From Escherichia coli (lineage in GTDB: Bacteria; Pseudomonadota; Gammaproteobacteria; Enterobacterales; Enterobacteriaceae), in assembly GCF_045037415.1 (NCBI RefSeq), contig NZ_CP173438.1: a stretch of DNA of 64,000 nt, one strand, 5' to 3'. The notes beneath the pieces are model-generated. The model was not told the origin of the DNA and searched no databases. It saw nothing but the letters and a program-made list of their open reading frames with translations. The position numbers and the translations under genes are program-made. Positions 1-6,975 of the stretch are shown piece after piece. How positions within the stretch are numbered: position 1 is the first letter of the stretch; every line of letters begins with the position of its first letter.

Positions 1-633
1 CTGCGCGCTGCATTGCGGGATTTGTCTGGTGGTTCTAAGGGGCAACTGGAAGCATTGTGTGAGCACCCACCGGCAGACAAAAACGCATACCCACGCAAAC
101 ATATTCACCGTGTGCAGCTGGAGGACCGGACCGTTGATGCTCTGGTTACGCCAGTTTACGCTCTGGAAAGTTTCAGCAGACGTCGCCCCGCGCCGCCGAT
201 GAGTGATTTTGAATTTGCTGATTCATCCTGGCGGCGTTCTGTGAACTCGCTGGATGCAAGTCAGCAAGCGTGGTTGCGTTATTGCTACGGTGGTAACCTG
301 GCATTCAAACACCAAACAGCTATTTGTGAGGCTGTCTGGAGTCGCTATAAAGGAAACATCCCCGCGTCAACTCAGAGAAAAGTAGTTAAGCGCCTGCTTT
401 CGTTGGTGTGGTTGTCCGTGCAGGCGGTCGCAGCAGCAAATAAACGCGAGGATTTTAAGGAGATGGCCGGATCTACCCTAGCAGGAATGCTGTCGGTTTC
501 TCGTTCCACCTGGTGCGAAACATACTCCCTGCACTGGGTAGGAATGAAAGAGGCGGTGAGAGCACTTGATGAAGTGGCACTTCTTGCAACTTTGCATCAT
601 TATCAGAACCATTTAGACGACGTTTGCGTATAA
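1..633 (+). CDS. hypothetical phage protein, 5' end outside window (frame open from position 1); sits where lambdoid phages encode the Q antiterminator but I cannot support that by sequence
   Basis: ORF track 13..633 (TTG at 13) with the same frame open to window start; immediately upstream of putative late promoter and lysis genes. Confidence 0.4.
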   Translation: MRAALRDLSGGSKGQLEALCEHPPADKNAYPRKHIHRVQLEDRTVDALVTPVYALESFSRRRPAPPMSDFEFADSSWRRSVNSLDASQQAWLRYCYGGNLAFKHQTAICEAVWSRYKGNIPASTQRKVVKRLLSLVWLSVQAVAAANKREDFKEMAGSTLAGMLSVSRSTWCETYSLHWVGMKEAVRALDEVALLATLHHYQNHLDDVCV

Positions 634-664
634 TGCTTGCAAAAACGAACAAAATAGGCCATAT

Positions 665-693
665 TTGACGCTAATTTGGTATGTTGCCAAATT
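665..693 (+). promoter_or_regulatory. putative late promoter resembling lambda pR' (-35 TTGACG, 17-nt spacer, -10 CAAATT)
   Basis: TTGACG at 665-670 and CAAATT at 688-693; lambda pR' has TTGACT/TAAATT as I recall. Confidence 0.3.
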
Positions 694-701
694 TCTAAGA
701 A

Positions 702-728
702 CCTCGCCACGGCGGGGTTTTGTCGTTT
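702..728 (+). terminator. putative tR'-like intrinsic terminator (short GC hairpin CCTCG..CGGGG followed by TTTTGTCGTTT)
   Basis: Hairpin plus T-rich tract read directly; located between the putative late promoter and the first lysis gene. Confidence 0.3.
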
Positions 729-745
729 CTGAATCAGGAAAAATC

Positions 746-1129
746 ATGTCTGAACCTCTAACCGCTGGCGTTGCTGCTGGCTCGGCGGGGGTGACGTTTG
801 CTGCGTTATTTCCTGAGGCAACACCTGCAGTGATGATCTGTGCGCTGGCAGGCGCAGCTCTCTATGTGTTGTCGTCCGGGCAGCATCGATTCTGGAAGCA
901 GGTTATTTTCGCACTCATTTCGTTTGTTGGCGGTGTGTATTGCGCTGAGACAGCGTCAGCCATCATTACCGGTATTCTGAACGCGGTGCTGAGTCACCTG
1001 AACCCTCCCGTAACAGTAAAAGTCTCTCCCGCCATTGGTGCACTGGTTGCATCAGTAATCAGCGTTACATCACTGTTGCGGATCATGTCACAAGCTCGTT
1101 TATGGAAATCAGATAAGGGGATGAAATAA
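746..1129 (+). CDS. putative holin / lysis membrane protein (127 aa, hydrophobic segments)
   Basis: ATG at 746 preceded by AGGAAA; ORF track frame 665..1129; hydrophobic TM-like stretches; first gene of lysis cassette. Confidence 0.4.
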   Translation: MSEPLTAGVAAGSAGVTFAALFPEATPAVMICALAGAALYVLSSGQHRFWKQVIFALISFVGGVYCAETASAIITGILNAVLSHLNPPVTVKVSPAIGALVASVISVTSLLRIMSQARLWKSDKGMK

Positions 1130-1401
1130 TGACCCTGCACTCTGTCCTCATCAATGCCAATGCAATTATTTGTCTGATGTTGGCACTACGGTTGATGTTT
1201 TTTCAAAAAACAGGCCGCTATCGTTTTTTCATCTCACTAACTGCTTACCTCGCGATTCTGTCTGCTGCGTGGATAGCCCTACGAATTTTTTACGGGAAAT
1301 ATACGCAGGTTGATCCCGCAGAGTTCTTTCTCAACCTCACCATCTGTATTGCTGTCTGGCGGGCACGAGGGAATATTTCAAAAATAACAGGAGACAGGTA
1401 A
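1129..1401 (+). CDS. putative holin-like small membrane protein (90 aa)
   Basis: ORF track; 2-3 hydrophobic helices; start overlaps stop of previous gene (ATGA). Confidence 0.4.
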   Translation: MTLHSVLINANAIICLMLALRLMFFQKTGRYRFFISLTAYLAILSAAWIALRIFYGKYTQVDPAEFFLNLTICIAVWRARGNISKITGDR

Positions 1402-1880
1402 TGACGGATCCTAAATGGCTAATCGAGGCTCGAAAAAACCTCGGCATTCGGGAAATGAAAGGGAAGCAACATGCTGCAGAAATTGTGCAGTACTGGAAAG
1501 ATATCAAACGCGGCGGCATTAAGGATGACGAAACACCGTGGTGCGCTGCTTTCACCGGGGCAATGCTGGAACGTGCGGGTATTCGCTCAACGCGTTTTGA
1601 GTCTGCGAATTCTTATCTCGATTGGGGTAATGAACTGAAGGAACCCGCCTATGGATGCATTGCTATTCTGTCTCGGTCTGGCGGTGGTCACGTCGGCTTT
1701 GTTGTCGGGAAAAATGCCGCCGGGGATTTAATGATTTTGGGGGGCAACCAGGCAGATGAAGTAAATATCAAAGCTTTTCCTCGTTCCCGCGTAACAGGCT
1801 ACCGCTGGCCAGCAGGTCAAACGGATGTTCCACAATCACTTCCATTGGTGAATGCTGAGAAATCTATCTCAGAAGCGTAG
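1401..1880 (+). CDS. putative endolysin (cysteine-peptidase/CHAP-like type found in place of lysozyme in some enterobacterial prophages)
   Basis: 159-aa ORF coupled to the two membrane proteins; sequence pattern recalled from TIGR02594-type prophage lysis proteins; position in cassette. Confidence 0.5.
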   Translation: MTDPKWLIEARKNLGIREMKGKQHAAEIVQYWKDIKRGGIKDDETPWCAAFTGAMLERAGIRSTRFESANSYLDWGNELKEPAYGCIAILSRSGGGHVGFVVGKNAAGDLMILGGNQADEVNIKAFPRSRVTGYRWPAGQTDVPQSLPLVNAEKSISEA

Positions 1881-1887
1881 GTAAAAC

Positions 1888-2082
1888 GTGAAAAAACTTC
1901 TCTTAGCTGTCGCGTTCTTCACGCTGGCAGGCTGCACACATTCGACATACACCGAAGCGACTCGCGCTGACGGCAGCAGTATTAAACACGTGATGATCGC
2001 GCCGGGTACGAAGATTACTACTGCGAACGGTGGTTGTATTGATTCAACCGGGGCAGAGGCTTCATGCCTTGGTGGAAAATAG
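1888..2082 (+). CDS. small lipoprotein (64 aa, lipobox LAGC), possible spanin-type lysis accessory protein
   Basis: Signal peptide MKKLLLAVAFFTLAGC; last gene of lysis cassette. Confidence 0.45.
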   Translation: MKKLLLAVAFFTLAGCTHSTYTEATRADGSSIKHVMIAPGTKITTANGGCIDSTGAEASCLGGK

Positions 2083-2141
2083 GGTAATTTACTTTAACGA
2101 GAGGCCGCCTTTTTGTTTTAAGGCGGCACACATTCAACAGA

Positions 2142-2402
2142 TTAAGGTAACTGATTTGACCATTTTGTTGCGCGCCAGTTGTTCTGAACCATAATCTTCT
2201 GAAGTATCTCATCTGAAGGCTCTGCTTCGCCGCTTAGCCATTCTCTTAAAGTTGAACAATTTAGATAAGAGGAGTTCGCACGATAAAAAGATACGATGGC
2301 GTCCTCTGATAACTTCTCAGGAAACTTTTTTGGGTCAGCTTCTTTTAATATTACGCTCATTAAGGCTTCAATTTTTTCTCTGTTCATTTTTTGCGTTCTC
2401 AT
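2142..2402 (-). CDS. hypothetical moron protein (81-86 aa) on opposite strand in AT-rich island; weak resemblance to DinI-family proteins
   Basis: ORF track; alternative ATG at 2387; low GC surroundings; antisense to late operon. Confidence 0.45.
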   Translation of the reverse strand: MRTQKMNREKIEALMSVILKEADPKKFPEKLSEDAIVSFYRANSSYLNCSTLREWLSGEAEPSDEILQKIMVQNNWRATKWSNQLP

Positions 2403-2755
2403 GGTTGTTGTTTTTCTGTAATGATATCAATAAGTTCAAGATATATACATATATGGAAAACTTGTTCGGTAGTCTATCGATACAGCACAAAAGGATGGCT
2501 CGCTGCCAAAGTGAAAGCTTACGCTGATAATCAGATACACAAAGCTGATGTATGCAAACAAGTACGCCGCGAGGCTACAGTTGAGTTTGATGAACCTGAT
2601 GCGAGCCCCTAATTCCTGTCCTGAAAGGGAGATAGCCCCCTGGTCGCGGGTCCTTTCCGAAATCCAAAACACCGAGGGTCGGTAGACGCGCAAAAACTCG
2701 CTCGTTTTTAGTATTTTTTCATTTTGGGTATTTCCGGTTCCGGTGAGGATTTTTA

Positions 2756-3322
2756 ATGGCAAGTCAGGCTGAGGTTGCAGCACATTTACTGCTATCTGAT
2801 CGTCGTCTGCGCGATCTCGCAAAACTTCCGGGAGCACCAGTCCCACAAGGACGTGGTGATTGGGAGCTAGACGCATGGCGCCATTTTTATATTCGTTATC
2901 TCCGGAGCAATAGACGCGACACAACTAGTAATGACGAACCGGAAGCGGGGGACAATTCTCCCGAAAAAAATCGCGAGCAGTGGCTGAAAAATGAGGAACG
3001 ACAGGAGCGAATCCTGATGGCACGAGTAAAACGCCGCATTCTCGCTAAACGCTACGCGCCAATTGAATTAATTAGCGTCGCTGTATCTCGCGTCGCCGTT
3101 GAATTACGTACCCGCGTCGAGTCGTGGCCACCACGCCTGAAAAAGGTCTGGCCGGAGATGCCGCAAGAGGCGAGCAGTGTATTACGAGAGGAGCTGGCGA
3201 TAGCCTTAAATGAGTTGTCAGACATACGAATCGACTTCAGCGATTACGATGTCAGCGATATCGAACGCGATCTCGACAGGGTTGAATCCCTTGCGCGTGA
3301 CGATACCGATGACGGGTGTTGA
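2756..3322 (+). CDS. terminase small subunit (Nu1-like)
   Basis: 188-aa ORF immediately upstream of and overlapping the large terminase; position and size. Confidence 0.6.
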   Translation: MASQAEVAAHLLLSDRRLRDLAKLPGAPVPQGRGDWELDAWRHFYIRYLRSNRRDTTSNDEPEAGDNSPEKNREQWLKNEERQERILMARVKRRILAKRYAPIELISVAVSRVAVELRTRVESWPPRLKKVWPEMPQEASSVLREELAIALNELSDIRIDFSDYDVSDIERDLDRVESLARDDTDDGC

Positions 3323-5171
3323 GTGGGCTGATAAATATTTTTATCTCCCTGAGGGCTCCAGCCACATCGCTGGGCACTGGACGACTCAGCCGGTCCAGGT
3401 AGTGATGCTCAATATGATGACGAACGACGCGATAAAAATCGTGTCTGTTCGCAAATCAGCTCGTCTCGGTTATACAAAAATACTCGTCGCGGCGCTGCTC
3501 TATTTCGCTGAGCACAAAAAACGTAGTGCCGTGGTCTATCAGCCTATCGATGACGAATCGGATGGATTTGTCGCCGACGAGGTTGACCCCGCTATCGCCG
3601 AAATGCCAGTGATTCAGAAAATTTTCCCCGACTGGGATAAAAGCAACGAGCGTAACAATCTCCAGCGTAAAGAAATGAGCGGCGCGATTCTTGATTTTCG
3701 CGGCGCGAGTGCACCAGGAAATTTCCGGCGACTAACGAAACAGGTTGTCGAGGGTGACGAAGTTGACGGCTGGCCGCTGGAAGTTGCCAAAAAAGGCAAA
3801 GGCGAGGGCTCGCCCATCGAACTGGCGCTCGTTCGAATTAAAGGGGCAGCGTACCCGAAGGCGATTTTTGGTTCGACGCCGACCGTTACCGGCAAAAGTC
3901 ATATCGAAATGCTCGAAGACGCTGCCGATCTGACGTTTCGTTTTTACCTGACATGTCCGCATTGTGGCGAGGAGCAGGTCCTGGTATTTGGTTTCGACGG
4001 TATCGAATACGGCCTCAAATGGGATAACAGCCTGCAGACCAATGAGGCGAAATCGTCGTCCGCGTATTACCAGTGCTGCCACTGCCCGGAACATTTTTAC
4101 TATCGCGATCTCGAAAAAATGGAGTTCGGGGGGCGCTGGATAGCCGAGGACTGCACCTGGACCCGAGACGGCATTCATTTTTTTGATCATGACGGTGGCG
4201 TCGTTCGCGCGCCGAAACACGCTGCGATCGTGATAAACGCCCTGTATTCACTAAACCTCGATGGATGGGGCGAGATTGTCAGCGAGTGGCTGAAAGCGAA
4301 AGGCGACCCGCTCAAGGAAAAGACGTTTCATAACACGACGCTCGGCGAACTCTGGAGCGACGTGGCCAGCGAGCAGCTGGAGCACGATATTCTGGTTAAT
4401 CGCCGGGAAAAATACGCCAGCCAGGTTCCTGACGGTGTTGTTTATATAACCGGCGGCATCGACTCTCAGACGTCCGGGCGCTACGAGTGTTATGTGTGGG
4501 GCTGGGGAGCCGAGGAGGAGTGCTGGCTGATTGATAAAACAATCGTCCTCGGTCGCTACGACGAGGAGGACACGCTGCAGCGCGTCGACGGAGTGATTCG
4601 CAAACAATACCGGCGCAGCGACGGGACCACAATCGGCGTCAGTCGCTGGGCGTGGGATACCGGTGGTATAGATGCGCAGGTCGTTTATAACCGCTCGCTG
4701 AAACTCGGTCCGCTGTGGGTCATTCCAATCAAGGGCGCGAGCTCATACGGCCAGCCGGTCGTAAATATGCCTCGTACCCGTAACGCGAATAAAGTGTATT
4801 TGTCGTTGATTGGGACAGATACAGCGAAAGACCTGCTCGCAATGCGCCTGCAGCTGGAACCCGACTCCAAATCGGCGACACCAGGTGCGATTCATTTTCC
4901 CAACGACGACGAAATATTCAGCACGACAGAGGCAAAACAGCTCGTCTCCGAGGTTCTGATCCCGAAACTCATTAACGGTCGCGTCGTTTATCGTTGGGAC
5001 AACCAGGGCCGGCGAAATGAGGCGCTCGACTGCTGGGTGTACGGACTGGCAGCGCTGCGTATCAGTAAAATTCGTTTCCAGCTCAATCTCGAGACGCTCG
5101 CTGAGCAACGGAAAAAATCACAAAACAAACTGTCTCTCGAGGAGATGGCCAGAATGCTCGGAGGGAGCTAA
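3210..5171 (+). CDS. terminase large subunit (lambda gpA-like)
   Basis: Recalled similarity to lambda gpA, e.g. AVEWAD.. and ACPHCGEEQ motifs (here TCPHCGEEQ), GSTP.V.G. Confidence 0.9.
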   Translation: MSCQTYESTSAITMSAISNAISTGLNPLRVTIPMTGVEWADKYFYLPEGSSHIAGHWTTQPVQVVMLNMMTNDAIKIVSVRKSARLGYTKILVAALLYFAEHKKRSAVVYQPIDDESDGFVADEVDPAIAEMPVIQKIFPDWDKSNERNNLQRKEMSGAILDFRGASAPGNFRRLTKQVVEGDEVDGWPLEVAKKGKGEGSPIELALVRIKGAAYPKAIFGSTPTVTGKSHIEMLEDAADLTFRFYLTCPHCGEEQVLVFGFDGIEYGLKWDNSLQTNEAKSSSAYYQCCHCPEHFYYRDLEKMEFGGRWIAEDCTWTRDGIHFFDHDGGVVRAPKHAAIVINALYSLNLDGWGEIVSEWLKAKGDPLKEKTFHNTTLGELWSDVASEQLEHDILVNRREKYASQVPDGVVYITGGIDSQTSGRYECYVWGWGAEEECWLIDKTIVLGRYDEEDTLQRVDGVIRKQYRRSDGTTIGVSRWAWDTGGIDAQVVYNRSLKLGPLWVIPIKGASSYGQPVVNMPRTRNANKVYLSLIGTDTAKDLLAMRLQLEPDSKSATPGAIHFPNDDEIFSTTEAKQLVSEVLIPKLINGRVVYRWDNQGRRNEALDCWVYGLAALRISKIRFQLNLETLAEQRKKSQNKLSLEEMARMLGGS

Positions 5172-5404
5172 TGACGTCGCGCGAGGTTTTAACAGAACGA
5201 CTGCTGGAAGCGGAAATCGCTCTGCACAAATTATTAACGGGTAAATCGACCGTGTCGCTGTCTCACGGCGATTCAGCAGGAAATAACCGGAGCTATCAAT
5301 ACTCGCAGGCGAGTATTGAGCAGCTCCGAACGTACATTATCGAGCTGAAATCACAGCTCGGTCTGAGTACGGGACGCCGTCGGCCCGTGGGAGTTCGATT
5401 ATGA
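5171..5404 (+). CDS. head-tail joining protein (lambda gpW-like)
   Basis: 77 aa; LH.L.TGK and Y..EL..Q.G pattern like lambda W; position between terminase and portal. Confidence 0.75.
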   Translation: MTSREVLTERLLEAEIALHKLLTGKSTVSLSHGDSAGNNRSYQYSQASIEQLRTYIIELKSQLGLSTGRRRPVGVRL

Positions 5405-6975
5405 CTGCTCCGCAGCAGCTGCTCGGGCCTGACGGTAAAACGCCACTACGCCGTTACGCGGGGTATAACGGCGGCGGTCCCGGTTTCGGTGGCCAGCTGA
5501 TTGACTGGAACGCACCACAGCAGAGCGCCGACGCAGCACTGTTGCCGAATTTTTATCGCGGTAACGCGCGAGCAGACGATCTCGTTCGCAATAACGGCGT
5601 CGCGTCGAACGCCGTGCAGCTGCACCAGGATCATATCGTCGGCAATCTGTTTAAGTTGAGTTATCGCCCTAACTGGCGTTACCTCGGCATATCTCGCGAG
5701 GACGCCAGGGCGCTGGCGCGTGACGTCGAGGTAGCGTGGACTGAATACGCCGAGGACCCTCACTGCACGATTGATATCGAGCGGAAACGGACGTTCACAA
5801 TGATGATCCGCGAGGGCGTGGCTACTCACGCTTTCAACGGTGAAACCTGCGTACAACCAGTCTGGGAGAGTAGTGCCGGCAGCGTTTTTCGGACGCGATT
5901 CAAAATGGTCTCACCGAAACGGATTCGAAATCCGGGTTACGCAGCTGACACTCAATTTCGCCGCGCCGGTGTTGATATCGATAAAAACGGGGCCGCGGTC
6001 GGGTACTGGATAGCCGAGGATACTTACCCTCTCGGCGGAGTCGGTAAATGCCGGCGTATCCCAGCACAGCTCAGCAGCGGCAGACACGCATTCATCCACA
6101 TATTCGAGCCGCTCGAGGACGGACAGACCCGCGGGGACAATATTTTTTACAGCGTCATGGAGCGCCTGAAAATGCTCGACACACTGCAGCAAACACAACT
6201 GCAGAGCGCCATTGTGAAGGCGATGTATGCCGCGACAATCGAATCAGAGCTCGACAGCCAGCAGGCGTTTGAATATATCGCCGGCGCGGGTACTGATATC
6301 GACTCGAACCCGCTGAATTCGTTTATTCAGAGTTACGTGACGTACTACAACGGCGCAAATATCAAGCTCGGTGGTGTGAAAGTTCCCCACCTGCATCCCG
6401 GCGACAAACTCAGTTTACAGACCGCTCAGAATGCTGATGCTGGTTTTAGTTCACTGGAAAAATCACTCCTGCGTTACGTTGCAGCTGGCGTTGGCGCGTC
6501 ATACGAAGAACTTAGCCGGGACTACAGCCAGGTCAGTTACTCCAGCGCCCGGGCCAGTGCTAACGTCAGCTGGCGATTTTTCATGGGGCGTCGACGTTTT
6601 ATCGCCGCGCGACAGGCGTCGCTGATGTTCTGCTGCTGGTTTGAAGAGGCGCTGGCACGCGGAATTATCACCCTGCCACGCTCAGCTGTCCGGTCGTTTT
6701 ATGAGGCGCGGAACTCCTGGACGAACGCGCTCTGGATCGGCGCTGGTCGCATGGCGATTGATGGGCTGAAAGAGGTTCAGGAGAGCGCCATGCGCATCAC
6801 AACTGGCCTCAGCACGTATCAGAACGAACTGGCGCTGCAGGGACAGGATTACGAGGAGGTTATGGAGCAGCAGGAATACGAAATTCAGCGCCGGCGTGAA
6901 ATGGGGCTGAGCGAACCGTCATGGTCTGTATCTCACCCCTCAAATACCAACGATAACGGCTGGGGAGGTAACTGA
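5401..6975 (+). CDS. portal protein (lambda gpB-like)
   Basis: 524 aa, position after W, size. Confidence 0.9.
   Translation: MTAPQQLLGPDGKTPLRRYAGYNGGGPGFGGQLIDWNAPQQSADAALLPNFYRGNARADDLVRNNGVASNAVQLHQDHIVGNLFKLSYRPNWRYLGISREDARALARDVEVAWTEYAEDPHCTIDIERKRTFTMMIREGVATHAFNGETCVQPVWESSAGSVFRTRFKMVSPKRIRNPGYAADTQFRRAGVDIDKNGAAVGYWIAEDTYPLGGVGKCRRIPAQLSSGRHAFIHIFEPLEDGQTRGDNIFYSVMERLKMLDTLQQTQLQSAIVKAMYAATIESELDSQQAFEYIAGAGTDIDSNPLNSFIQSYVTYYNGANIKLGGVKVPHLHPGDKLSLQTAQNADAGFSSLEKSLLRYVAAGVGASYEELSRDYSQVSYSSARASANVSWRFFMGRRRFIAARQASLMFCCWFEEALARGIITLPRSAVRSFYEARNSWTNALWIGAGRMAIDGLKEVQESAMRITTGLSTYQNELALQGQDYEEVMEQQEYEIQRRREMGLSEPSWSVSHPSNTNDNGWGGN

Follow-up and report, generated by a model that had tools for sequence, protein, structure and literature searches.

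A small antisense cargo gene at the lysis-packaging boundary of a lambdoid Escherichia coli prophage may encode a divergent Cro/XRE-fold regulator

The window analyzed here, a stretch of 64,000 nucleotides of Escherichia coli DNA (assembly GCF_045037415.1, contig NZ_CP173438.1), starts in the late region of a lambdoid prophage. Between a lipoprotein gene that closes the lysis cassette and the gene of the terminase small subunit (terS) there is a gap of 673 bp, and inside it lies an open reading frame (ORF) on the minus strand. Our results show that this ORF is a real protein-coding gene under purifying selection and that it behaves as a mobile cargo cassette (moron) at a module boundary. With respect to its function, we propose, with a probability of roughly 0.45, that it is a cargo gene transcribed autonomously, whose product is a small transcription regulator with a divergent Cro/XRE fold and acts through its third helix. 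The first-pass annotation of this DNA had described an antisense ORF in an AT-rich island between the lysis and packaging genes, and the ORF, the drop in GC content and the gene order are all confirmed.

A conserved gene of 81 codons

The ORF is taken as a real gene because of its conservation and not because of its length. The latter is by itself within chance for AT-rich DNA, with about 0.3 such ORFs expected in the interval according to our estimate, and evidently spurious ORFs of 91 and 162 amino acids overlap the minus-strand frame. Conservation, on the other hand, is seen at several levels. The product matches phrog_5191, a family with function annotated as unknown, from end to end (E 9.5e-62), and 16 residues are invariant across the phrog_5191-type homologues, down to about 35% identity. 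In addition, the ratio of nonsynonymous to synonymous substitution rates (dN/dS, omega) ranges from 0.05 to 0.34 over five pairs of homologous genes: 0.23 between the window gene and its allele in locus L009; 0.34, 0.11 and 0.11 among loci L002, L012 and L014; and 0.05 between L007 and L016, with a dN of 0.08 and a dS of 1.8.

Regarding the start of the gene, the frame as first read has 86 codons, the length also given by the NCBI annotation pipeline (PGAP). The alignments of all distant homologues, however, start at query residue 6, which corresponds to a second ATG, and because every homologue begins there we assign the true product as the 81-residue protein encoded at 2142-2387. In line with this assignment, the L009 allele (94% identical) has 2 nt inserted between the two ATGs, so that the upstream one is no longer in frame. 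A weak Shine-Dalgarno sequence (GAGA) lies ahead of the 81-codon ORF, and the five-codon extension is probably 5' untranslated sequence.

Predicted fold of the product

Searches with the ORF product returned no match in NCBIfam and none of significance in Pfam. AlphaFold2, run on an alignment of seven sequences, predicted four helices (residues 3-14, 28-37, 44-52 and 59-68) with a mean pLDDT of 86 and a pTM of 0.75, and a second run centered on the 41% identical homologue P0009 gave the same layout with a pLDDT of 85.8. The predicted helical bundle can be superposed on solved XRE-type domains. Helix 1 is followed by a loop of 13 residues, which is atypical for a domain of this kind.

Faint matches at the sequence level point to the same fold. 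The Pfam domain HTH_3 (PF01381) aligns with an i-Evalue of 0.024-0.026 over residues 45-65 only (21 residues), below the Pfam threshold; a PHROG annotated as repressor, phrog_3037, is matched weakly (E 0.039); and hhalign against P22 C2, 434 Cro, 434 cI and SinR gives an E value of 0.043. These three matches agree in register, covering residues 42-70 approximately, that is, helix 3, a G-x-x-x-P loop and helix 4. The protein is therefore best read, as far as the structure models go, as a cytoplasmic four-helix member of the lambda-repressor-like (Cro/XRE) superfamily with a divergent sequence. A match of the family profile to PDCD5 among the sequences of the Protein Data Bank (PDB; E 0.28) was dismissed as due to chance, and no other PDB sequence was matched.

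Distribution of the family

Other enterobacterial prophages carry homologues of 81-85 amino acids with 35-56% identity. Four genuine distant relatives (81-85 amino acids, 36-53% identity) were recovered by phmmer, run exhaustively against 1.8 billion cluster representatives, and of two profile searches of a set of 5.8 billion the first added three members and the second none. Three large repetitive proteins (P0011-P0013, E 5e-5 to 9e-4) that came up as well were set aside as low-complexity artefacts. The family amounts to 13 clusters among 5.8 billion, fragments included, and its named members belong to Escherichia and Citrobacter. In IMG/VR the search yielded 91-100% identical copies only, the phage collection held a single identical copy, in Escherichia phage vB_EcoM-705R4, whose sequence is 100% identical over the whole interval, and the plasmid collection contained no family member. 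Taken as a whole, this is a very small, rare and unnamed family, already catalogued as a PHROG of unknown function. No paper mentioning phrog_5191 or the protein accessions was found in the literature; a paper on Gifsy defence (PMC12724215) deals with an unrelated Avs2-like gene.

Within E. coli the interval is present as a single copy in 442 of 5426 complete genomes (about 8%), and among the matches listed, those with a serotype or sequence-type label are O25b:H4/ST131. The insert was found in 442 E. coli genomes and the insert together with its flanks in 443, and no empty site was seen among the E. coli carriers of the prophage. The ORF accompanies this pair of lysis cassette and terS everywhere, with the single exception of a decayed prophage that has suffered a deletion (L010, protein P0006). 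In that prophage (NZ_CM149862.1, about 3001-3369) the deletion took the promoter region and the first 36 codons or so, and what is left of the gene now continues into an antisense ORF of the cos region; in this prophage terS is a pseudogene and an insertion sequence (IS) interrupts terL.

Cargo between lysis and packaging genes

Eight independent genomic contexts of the family were recovered, and in all of them the gene opposes its neighbors. Six are informative; the other two are a prophage in decay (L004-6) and a contig of 1 kb (L008). In all six of the former, the gene and the first packaging gene stand directly side by side and diverge, with the 5' ends 55-353 bp apart, although the packaging module itself differs: a Nu1-like terS (phrog_57) in the window and L009, a phrog_51/Terminase_2 terS in L002, L012/13 and L014/15, and a set of HNH, Terminase_4 and TerL genes in L007 and L016. 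On its other side the gene converges with the lysis cassette, from which it is separated by 0-5 cargo genes encoding DUF1378, Acb2/Tad1-hairpin, Sequestin and DUF4145 proteins as well as unknowns. Its GC content (0.33-0.44) lies under that of both flanks (0.45-0.55) at all eight loci measured; in the window it is 0.39, as compared with 0.50-0.53 for the 2 kb on each side.

This deviant base composition, together with the occurrence beside three unrelated types of packaging module and several types of lysis cassette, is how a moron behaves, and the constancy with which the gene stays on the packaging side is a genuine regularity. The slot between the lysis genes and terS is, in turn, a preferred site of counter-defence and accessory genes. 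Its occupants include an anti-CBASS-type Acb2/Tad1-hairpin protein in L007 (6469-6708), a Sequestin domain protein in L014 (7107-7301), a DUF4145 protein in L002 (1036-1719) and two additional hypothetical genes in L009 (2170-2738). In two metagenomic contigs, L012 (740-2429) and L013 (231-1920), terS is followed by umuD/umuC-like genes (Peptidase_S24 and IMS) in place of the large terminase gene, an arrangement that points to the remnant of a prophage or to a mosaic of unusual kind.

Expression signals and a possible mode of action

Past the end of the gene lies the GC palindrome that had been pointed out earlier at about 2104-2130, and which proved to be a hairpin with a stem of 8 bp. Its arms, GCCGCCTT (2104-2111) and AAGGCGGC (2120-2127), are 100% complementary and begin 15 nt beyond the ORF stop; either strand folds with an energy of -16 to -17 kcal/mol (z about -4.4), a value equaled by none of 200 shuffled sequences. 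A GC hairpin is found 3' of the stop codon in each homologous locus, and in L007, L016 and L008 the stem is kept while the loop varies. The hairpin is likely to serve as a bidirectional transcription stop or as a stabilizer of RNA 3' ends.

Upstream of the gene, the top promoter candidate consists of a -35 element TGTATA (2449-2444) and a -10 element TATCAT (2426-2421) separated by a 17-nt spacer, 33 nt ahead of the ATG, and an imperfect palindrome (72% complementary) extends over 2429-2466. Footprinting of the homologous upstream regions revealed no shared motif, and a conserved upstream block in L002, L012 and L014 is at least in part the ribosome-binding site of terS, on the opposite strand. 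The orientation of the gene and its base composition suggest that it is transcriptionally autonomous.

These features allow us to propose a model in which the gene would be transcribed against the late operon, from the AT-rich stretch near cos and terS, and the transcript would run as far as the GC hairpin that the gene has in common with the lysis genes facing it. In the lysogenic state, transcription of the late operon would halt at the terminator that follows the antiterminator gene Q (698-721), and because it stops there the gene could be expressed without interference. Upon induction, Q-modified polymerase would pass the hairpin head-on and oppose the gene. As for the protein, helix 3 (CSTLREWLSG) would offer its surface, together with the E-P-S-D-E loop after it, for the binding of DNA or, alternatively, of a partner protein. 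It is in this sense that we infer a promoter, a timing of expression and a DNA-binding, regulatory role.

Several observations weigh against such a regulator. Concerning the fold, membership in the XRE/HTH_3 group is below threshold at the sequence level, and none of seven family members matches HTH_3 at E<=0.001. The link between helices 2 and 3 (loop 38-43, 6 residues) is about 6 residues beyond the canonical turn, it lacks a conserved glycine and in P0010 it contains a 4-residue insertion, so that the canonical tight helix-turn-helix, with a turn of 3-4 residues and usually a glycine, was not found between these helices. Net charge is zero or negative in five of the six proteins checked (pI 5.0-6.6), and the invariant residues R72, W76 and S77 sit in a low-confidence C-terminal tail, pointing more to the binding of a partner. 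Moreover, the alignments under the structure models are shallow (7-9 sequences), and the AlphaFold database (AFDB) model A0A8S0FSW7 of the identical 86-residue protein agrees poorly with our own (TM 0.41, rmsd 8.3 A); this AFDB model is probably of low confidence, and fold searches that use it call for caution. Concerning expression, the hairpin has no proper U-tract on either strand and, with the T-run missing, was not called by the terminator scan; the best weight-matrix promoter score was equaled by 36% of shuffled sequences, with no locus reaching significance, and a consensus scan gave no sigma-70 promoter on the minus strand. The palindrome at 2429-2466 is eroded in the 94% identical allele of L009 and so lacks support as an operator for autoregulation.

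Candidate cos region beside the gene

On the terS side of the interval we located a candidate cos region outside the gene. Nucleotide 1 of the linear records of the Aeromonas phages phiARM81ld and PhAER-5 aligns to position 2677 of the window, the center of the dyad ACCGA-GGG-TCGGT, and the final bases of the PhAER-1 and PhAER-2 records likewise align there. Over the 83 bp up to terS the window shares 77-79% identity with the left record ends of phiARM81ld, PhAER-1, PhAER-2 and PhAER-5, and the terS proteins of phiARM81ld and the PhAER phages are 46-47% identical to that of the window. In light of these alignments, the dyad (2671-2683) is probably cosN and the direct repeats at 2702-2743 probably cosB, as candidate terminase-binding elements of the packaging module. 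The literature offered nothing usable on the cos site of phiARM81ld.

If the ends of the Aeromonas records are physical ends, as we infer, the cos assignment would hold and the ORF, whose start codon is about 290 bp from the candidate cut (around 2677), would lie terminally at the right end of the virion DNA, reading inward. Under the same premise the AT-rich insert proper would span about 2140-2500 only; much of the island described earlier (about 2500-2755) probably belongs to the packaging module.

Alternative explanations

The atypical loops, the charge and the C-terminal tail keep an action through protein binding in contention beside DNA binding. In the main alternative, which on balance we doubt, the protein would have the same fold but would have lost DNA binding and would contact a host or phage protein through its conserved C-terminal W-R-x-T-x-W-S tail and helix 3. 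Examples of this mode would be an antirepressor similar to MOR of phage TP901-1, an orphan antitoxin of XRE type or a small factor for anti-defence or exclusion. PADLOC defence models, however, gave 0 families at E<=1, no conserved partner gene adjoins the gene in any locus, and the variable exposed residues of helix 3 fit changes in DNA-binding specificity as well. Nor does the acidic loop decide against DNA binding: P22 C2 has a comparable acidic loop (S-E-T-E-P) behind helix 3 and binds DNA despite it. A further alternative ties the gene to packaging or to the genome ends, either through an accessory role of its product at cos/pac or on the terminase, or as an immediate-early gene of the last-packaged, first-injected end, expressed ahead of all others. 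The gene is the direct divergent neighbor of the first packaging gene in six of six contexts while the number of genes on the lysis side varies from 0 to 5, and the vicinity of the candidate cut would make it terminal. We nevertheless consider this link improbable. Because three unrelated types of terS adjoin the gene, in carriers of cos type and, to judge from the terminase families, probable headful type, a specific interaction with the terminase or cos is unlikely; the module boundary may simply be permissive for cargo insertion, the gene persists in decayed prophages without terL (L004, L012), and the position of cos derives solely from the record ends of distant Aeromonas phages. Along the same line, in lambda the right DNA end is injected first, and the placement beside the packaging genes might be functional in that the ORF, on the last-packaged and first-injected end of cos-type carriers, would supply a factor at once on entry, before the remaining genome becomes available, a scenario to which we give little credence. 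Such a Cro-fold protein would neutralize a host defence or the repressor of a resident prophage, or prime the lysis-lysogeny decision, which we rate as a long shot. To our knowledge, a class of end-proximal early genes has not been described for lambdoid phages.

The remaining alternatives fare worse. A chance ORF in an AT-rich, non-coding spacer, giving no protein, would agree with the insignificant length, the overlapping spurious ORFs, the weak Shine-Dalgarno sequence and the lack of a convincing promoter; we hold it to be highly improbable in view of the purifying selection that persists through heavy synonymous divergence (L007 versus L016), the maintenance of length and of the invariant residues at low identity, and a fold prediction that is confident and reproducible. 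Least probable of all, to a degree that makes it negligible, is a DinI-family protein, that is, an SOS-induced modulator of RecA. The first-pass annotation had paired the cargo reading with a faint resemblance to DinI. The cargo part stands, on account of the antisense orientation, the AT-rich composition, the hairpin after the gene and a slot that holds accessory cargo in relatives; the DinI part falls on profile, pairwise, fold and LexA-box evidence alike. DinI resembles the ORF product superficially, being about 81 residues long, often prophage-borne and endowed with a short string of the ILQ....W kind near its C-terminus. Yet no DinI (PF06183) match appeared in the Pfam scan even at E<=10, either for the protein or for all seven members of the alignment, and BLASTP against E. 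coli DinI aligned nothing at E<=100. The models show an all-alpha, XRE-like fold, as opposed to the alpha/beta fold of DinI, so that at the fold level the match is to an unrelated family. Finally, no CTGT-N8-ACAG-like site with fewer than two core mismatches exists in 1900-2900, the best LexA-box candidate there having 8 mismatches out of 20 to the consensus.

Features of the locus

The coordinates of the gene and its surroundings are collected in Table 1. The terminator between Q and the first holin is the expected tR' of the late operon; a scan of 560-800 picked up no consensus late promoter around it. The lipoprotein at the end of the lysis cassette has just weak matches to Rz-like spanins and assorted lipoprotein families, and no pair of i-spanin and o-spanin is recognizable after the endolysin gene. 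With regard to terS, RefSeq/PGAP gives a protein of 101 amino acids (3017-3322), starting about 260 nt downstream of the 188-residue form (2756-3322). As phrog_57 aligns from residue 1 of the longer form and the Aeromonas homologues begin there too, the PGAP start is probably too short.

GC content in 200-nt windows is 0.335-0.385 across about 2200-2600 and 0.47-0.56 in the flanks. The last 45 codons of a plus-strand ORF (2476-2612, ending in GWLAAKVKAYADNQIHKADVCKQVRREATVEFDEPDASP before the stop) resemble a real protein and have normal GC content; PHROG and NCBIfam searches with this stretch gave no match, and it may be the remnant of a gene truncated on arrival of the AT-rich cassette. The plus-strand ORFs at 2391-2612 and 2252-2527 and the minus-strand ORF at 2436-2924 have no family matches and were treated as spurious. 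Against Rfam (E<=1), positions 1-6000 gave just two matches, both at chance level and both outside the interval.

Table 1. Positions in the window of the minus-strand gene, its putative signals and the adjoining prophage genes
Feature	Position	Strand	Remarks
ORF as first read	2142..2402	minus	86 aa; same length in PGAP annotation
Coding sequence, 81-aa all-helical protein of the phrog_5191 family, predicted divergent XRE/Cro-like fold	2142..2387	minus	stop TAA 2142-2144, start ATG 2385-2387
In-frame 5-codon extension from upstream ATG (2400-2402)	2388..2402	minus	no conservation, no Shine-Dalgarno sequence
GC-rich hairpin, 8-bp stem and 8-nt loop	2104..2127	.	located where the lipoprotein gene and the ORF converge
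AT-rich upstream region, GC about 0.3-0.36	2403..2500	minus	expected promoter site, from composition
Dyad ACCGA-GGG-TCGGT (ACCGAGGGTCGGT)	2671..2683	.	candidate cos cleavage site, outside the gene
Direct repeats TCGTTTTTAGTATTT / TCATTTTGGGTATTT and TTCCGGTTCCGG	2702..2743	plus	just upstream of terS; conserved with phiARM81ld, about 78%
Q-type antiterminator gene	13-633		phrog_304
tR'-like intrinsic terminator	698-721		10-bp stem and T-run, between Q and first holin
Two holin genes, then TIGR02594-type endolysin gene	1401-1880 (endolysin)		
Lipoprotein gene, 64 aa	1888-2082		lipobox LAGC; last gene of lysis cassette
Nu1-like terminase small subunit gene (terS)	2756-3322		phrog_57
GpA-like large subunit, gpW and portal genes			downstream of terS

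Significance

If the proposed function is true, about 8% of complete E. coli genomes carry a prophage that expresses an unnamed small Cro-fold regulator from its late region, and regulators of this kind can reprogram transcription in the host or the phage, change induction or prevent superinfection. The placement beside the packaging genes across unrelated modules is, in addition, a small and clean regularity of the way in which cargo genes travel. At present, the gene is another hypothetical moron, now assigned a fold, and as prophage cargo it is fairly ordinary; the main concrete gain is the correction of the DinI/SOS idea.

Comparison with known systems

The XRE/Cro/CI domains (HTH_3, PF01381) with which we compared the ORF product include small stand-alone Cro proteins, controller C proteins of restriction-modification (R-M) systems, Aca proteins and HigA antitoxins. 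The ORF product differs from them in remaining below all sequence thresholds and in the long loop after helix 1; it is also mostly non-basic, has an invariant C-terminal W/R/W-S tail, and no operator or partner gene was identified for it. The lactococcal phage antirepressor MOR of TP901-1 (PDB 6tri_B) shows no detectable sequence similarity to it, and whereas the MOR gene lies in the immunity switch region, the window gene is located at the junction of lysis and packaging.

The closest parallel in terms of genome organization is provided by bor of lambda and other right-end morons, a concept due to Juhala and Hendrix, which sit between the lysis genes and cos. The Bor protein is a lipoprotein of the outer membrane, while the ORF product is a cytoplasmic helical domain without signal peptide, and the two sequences are unrelated. 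The window gene nevertheless shares with bor and the lambdoid morons the same slot, the orientation opposite to the late operon, the deviant base composition and the hairpin after the gene, and like them it looks dispensable, being present in some relatives and replaced in others.
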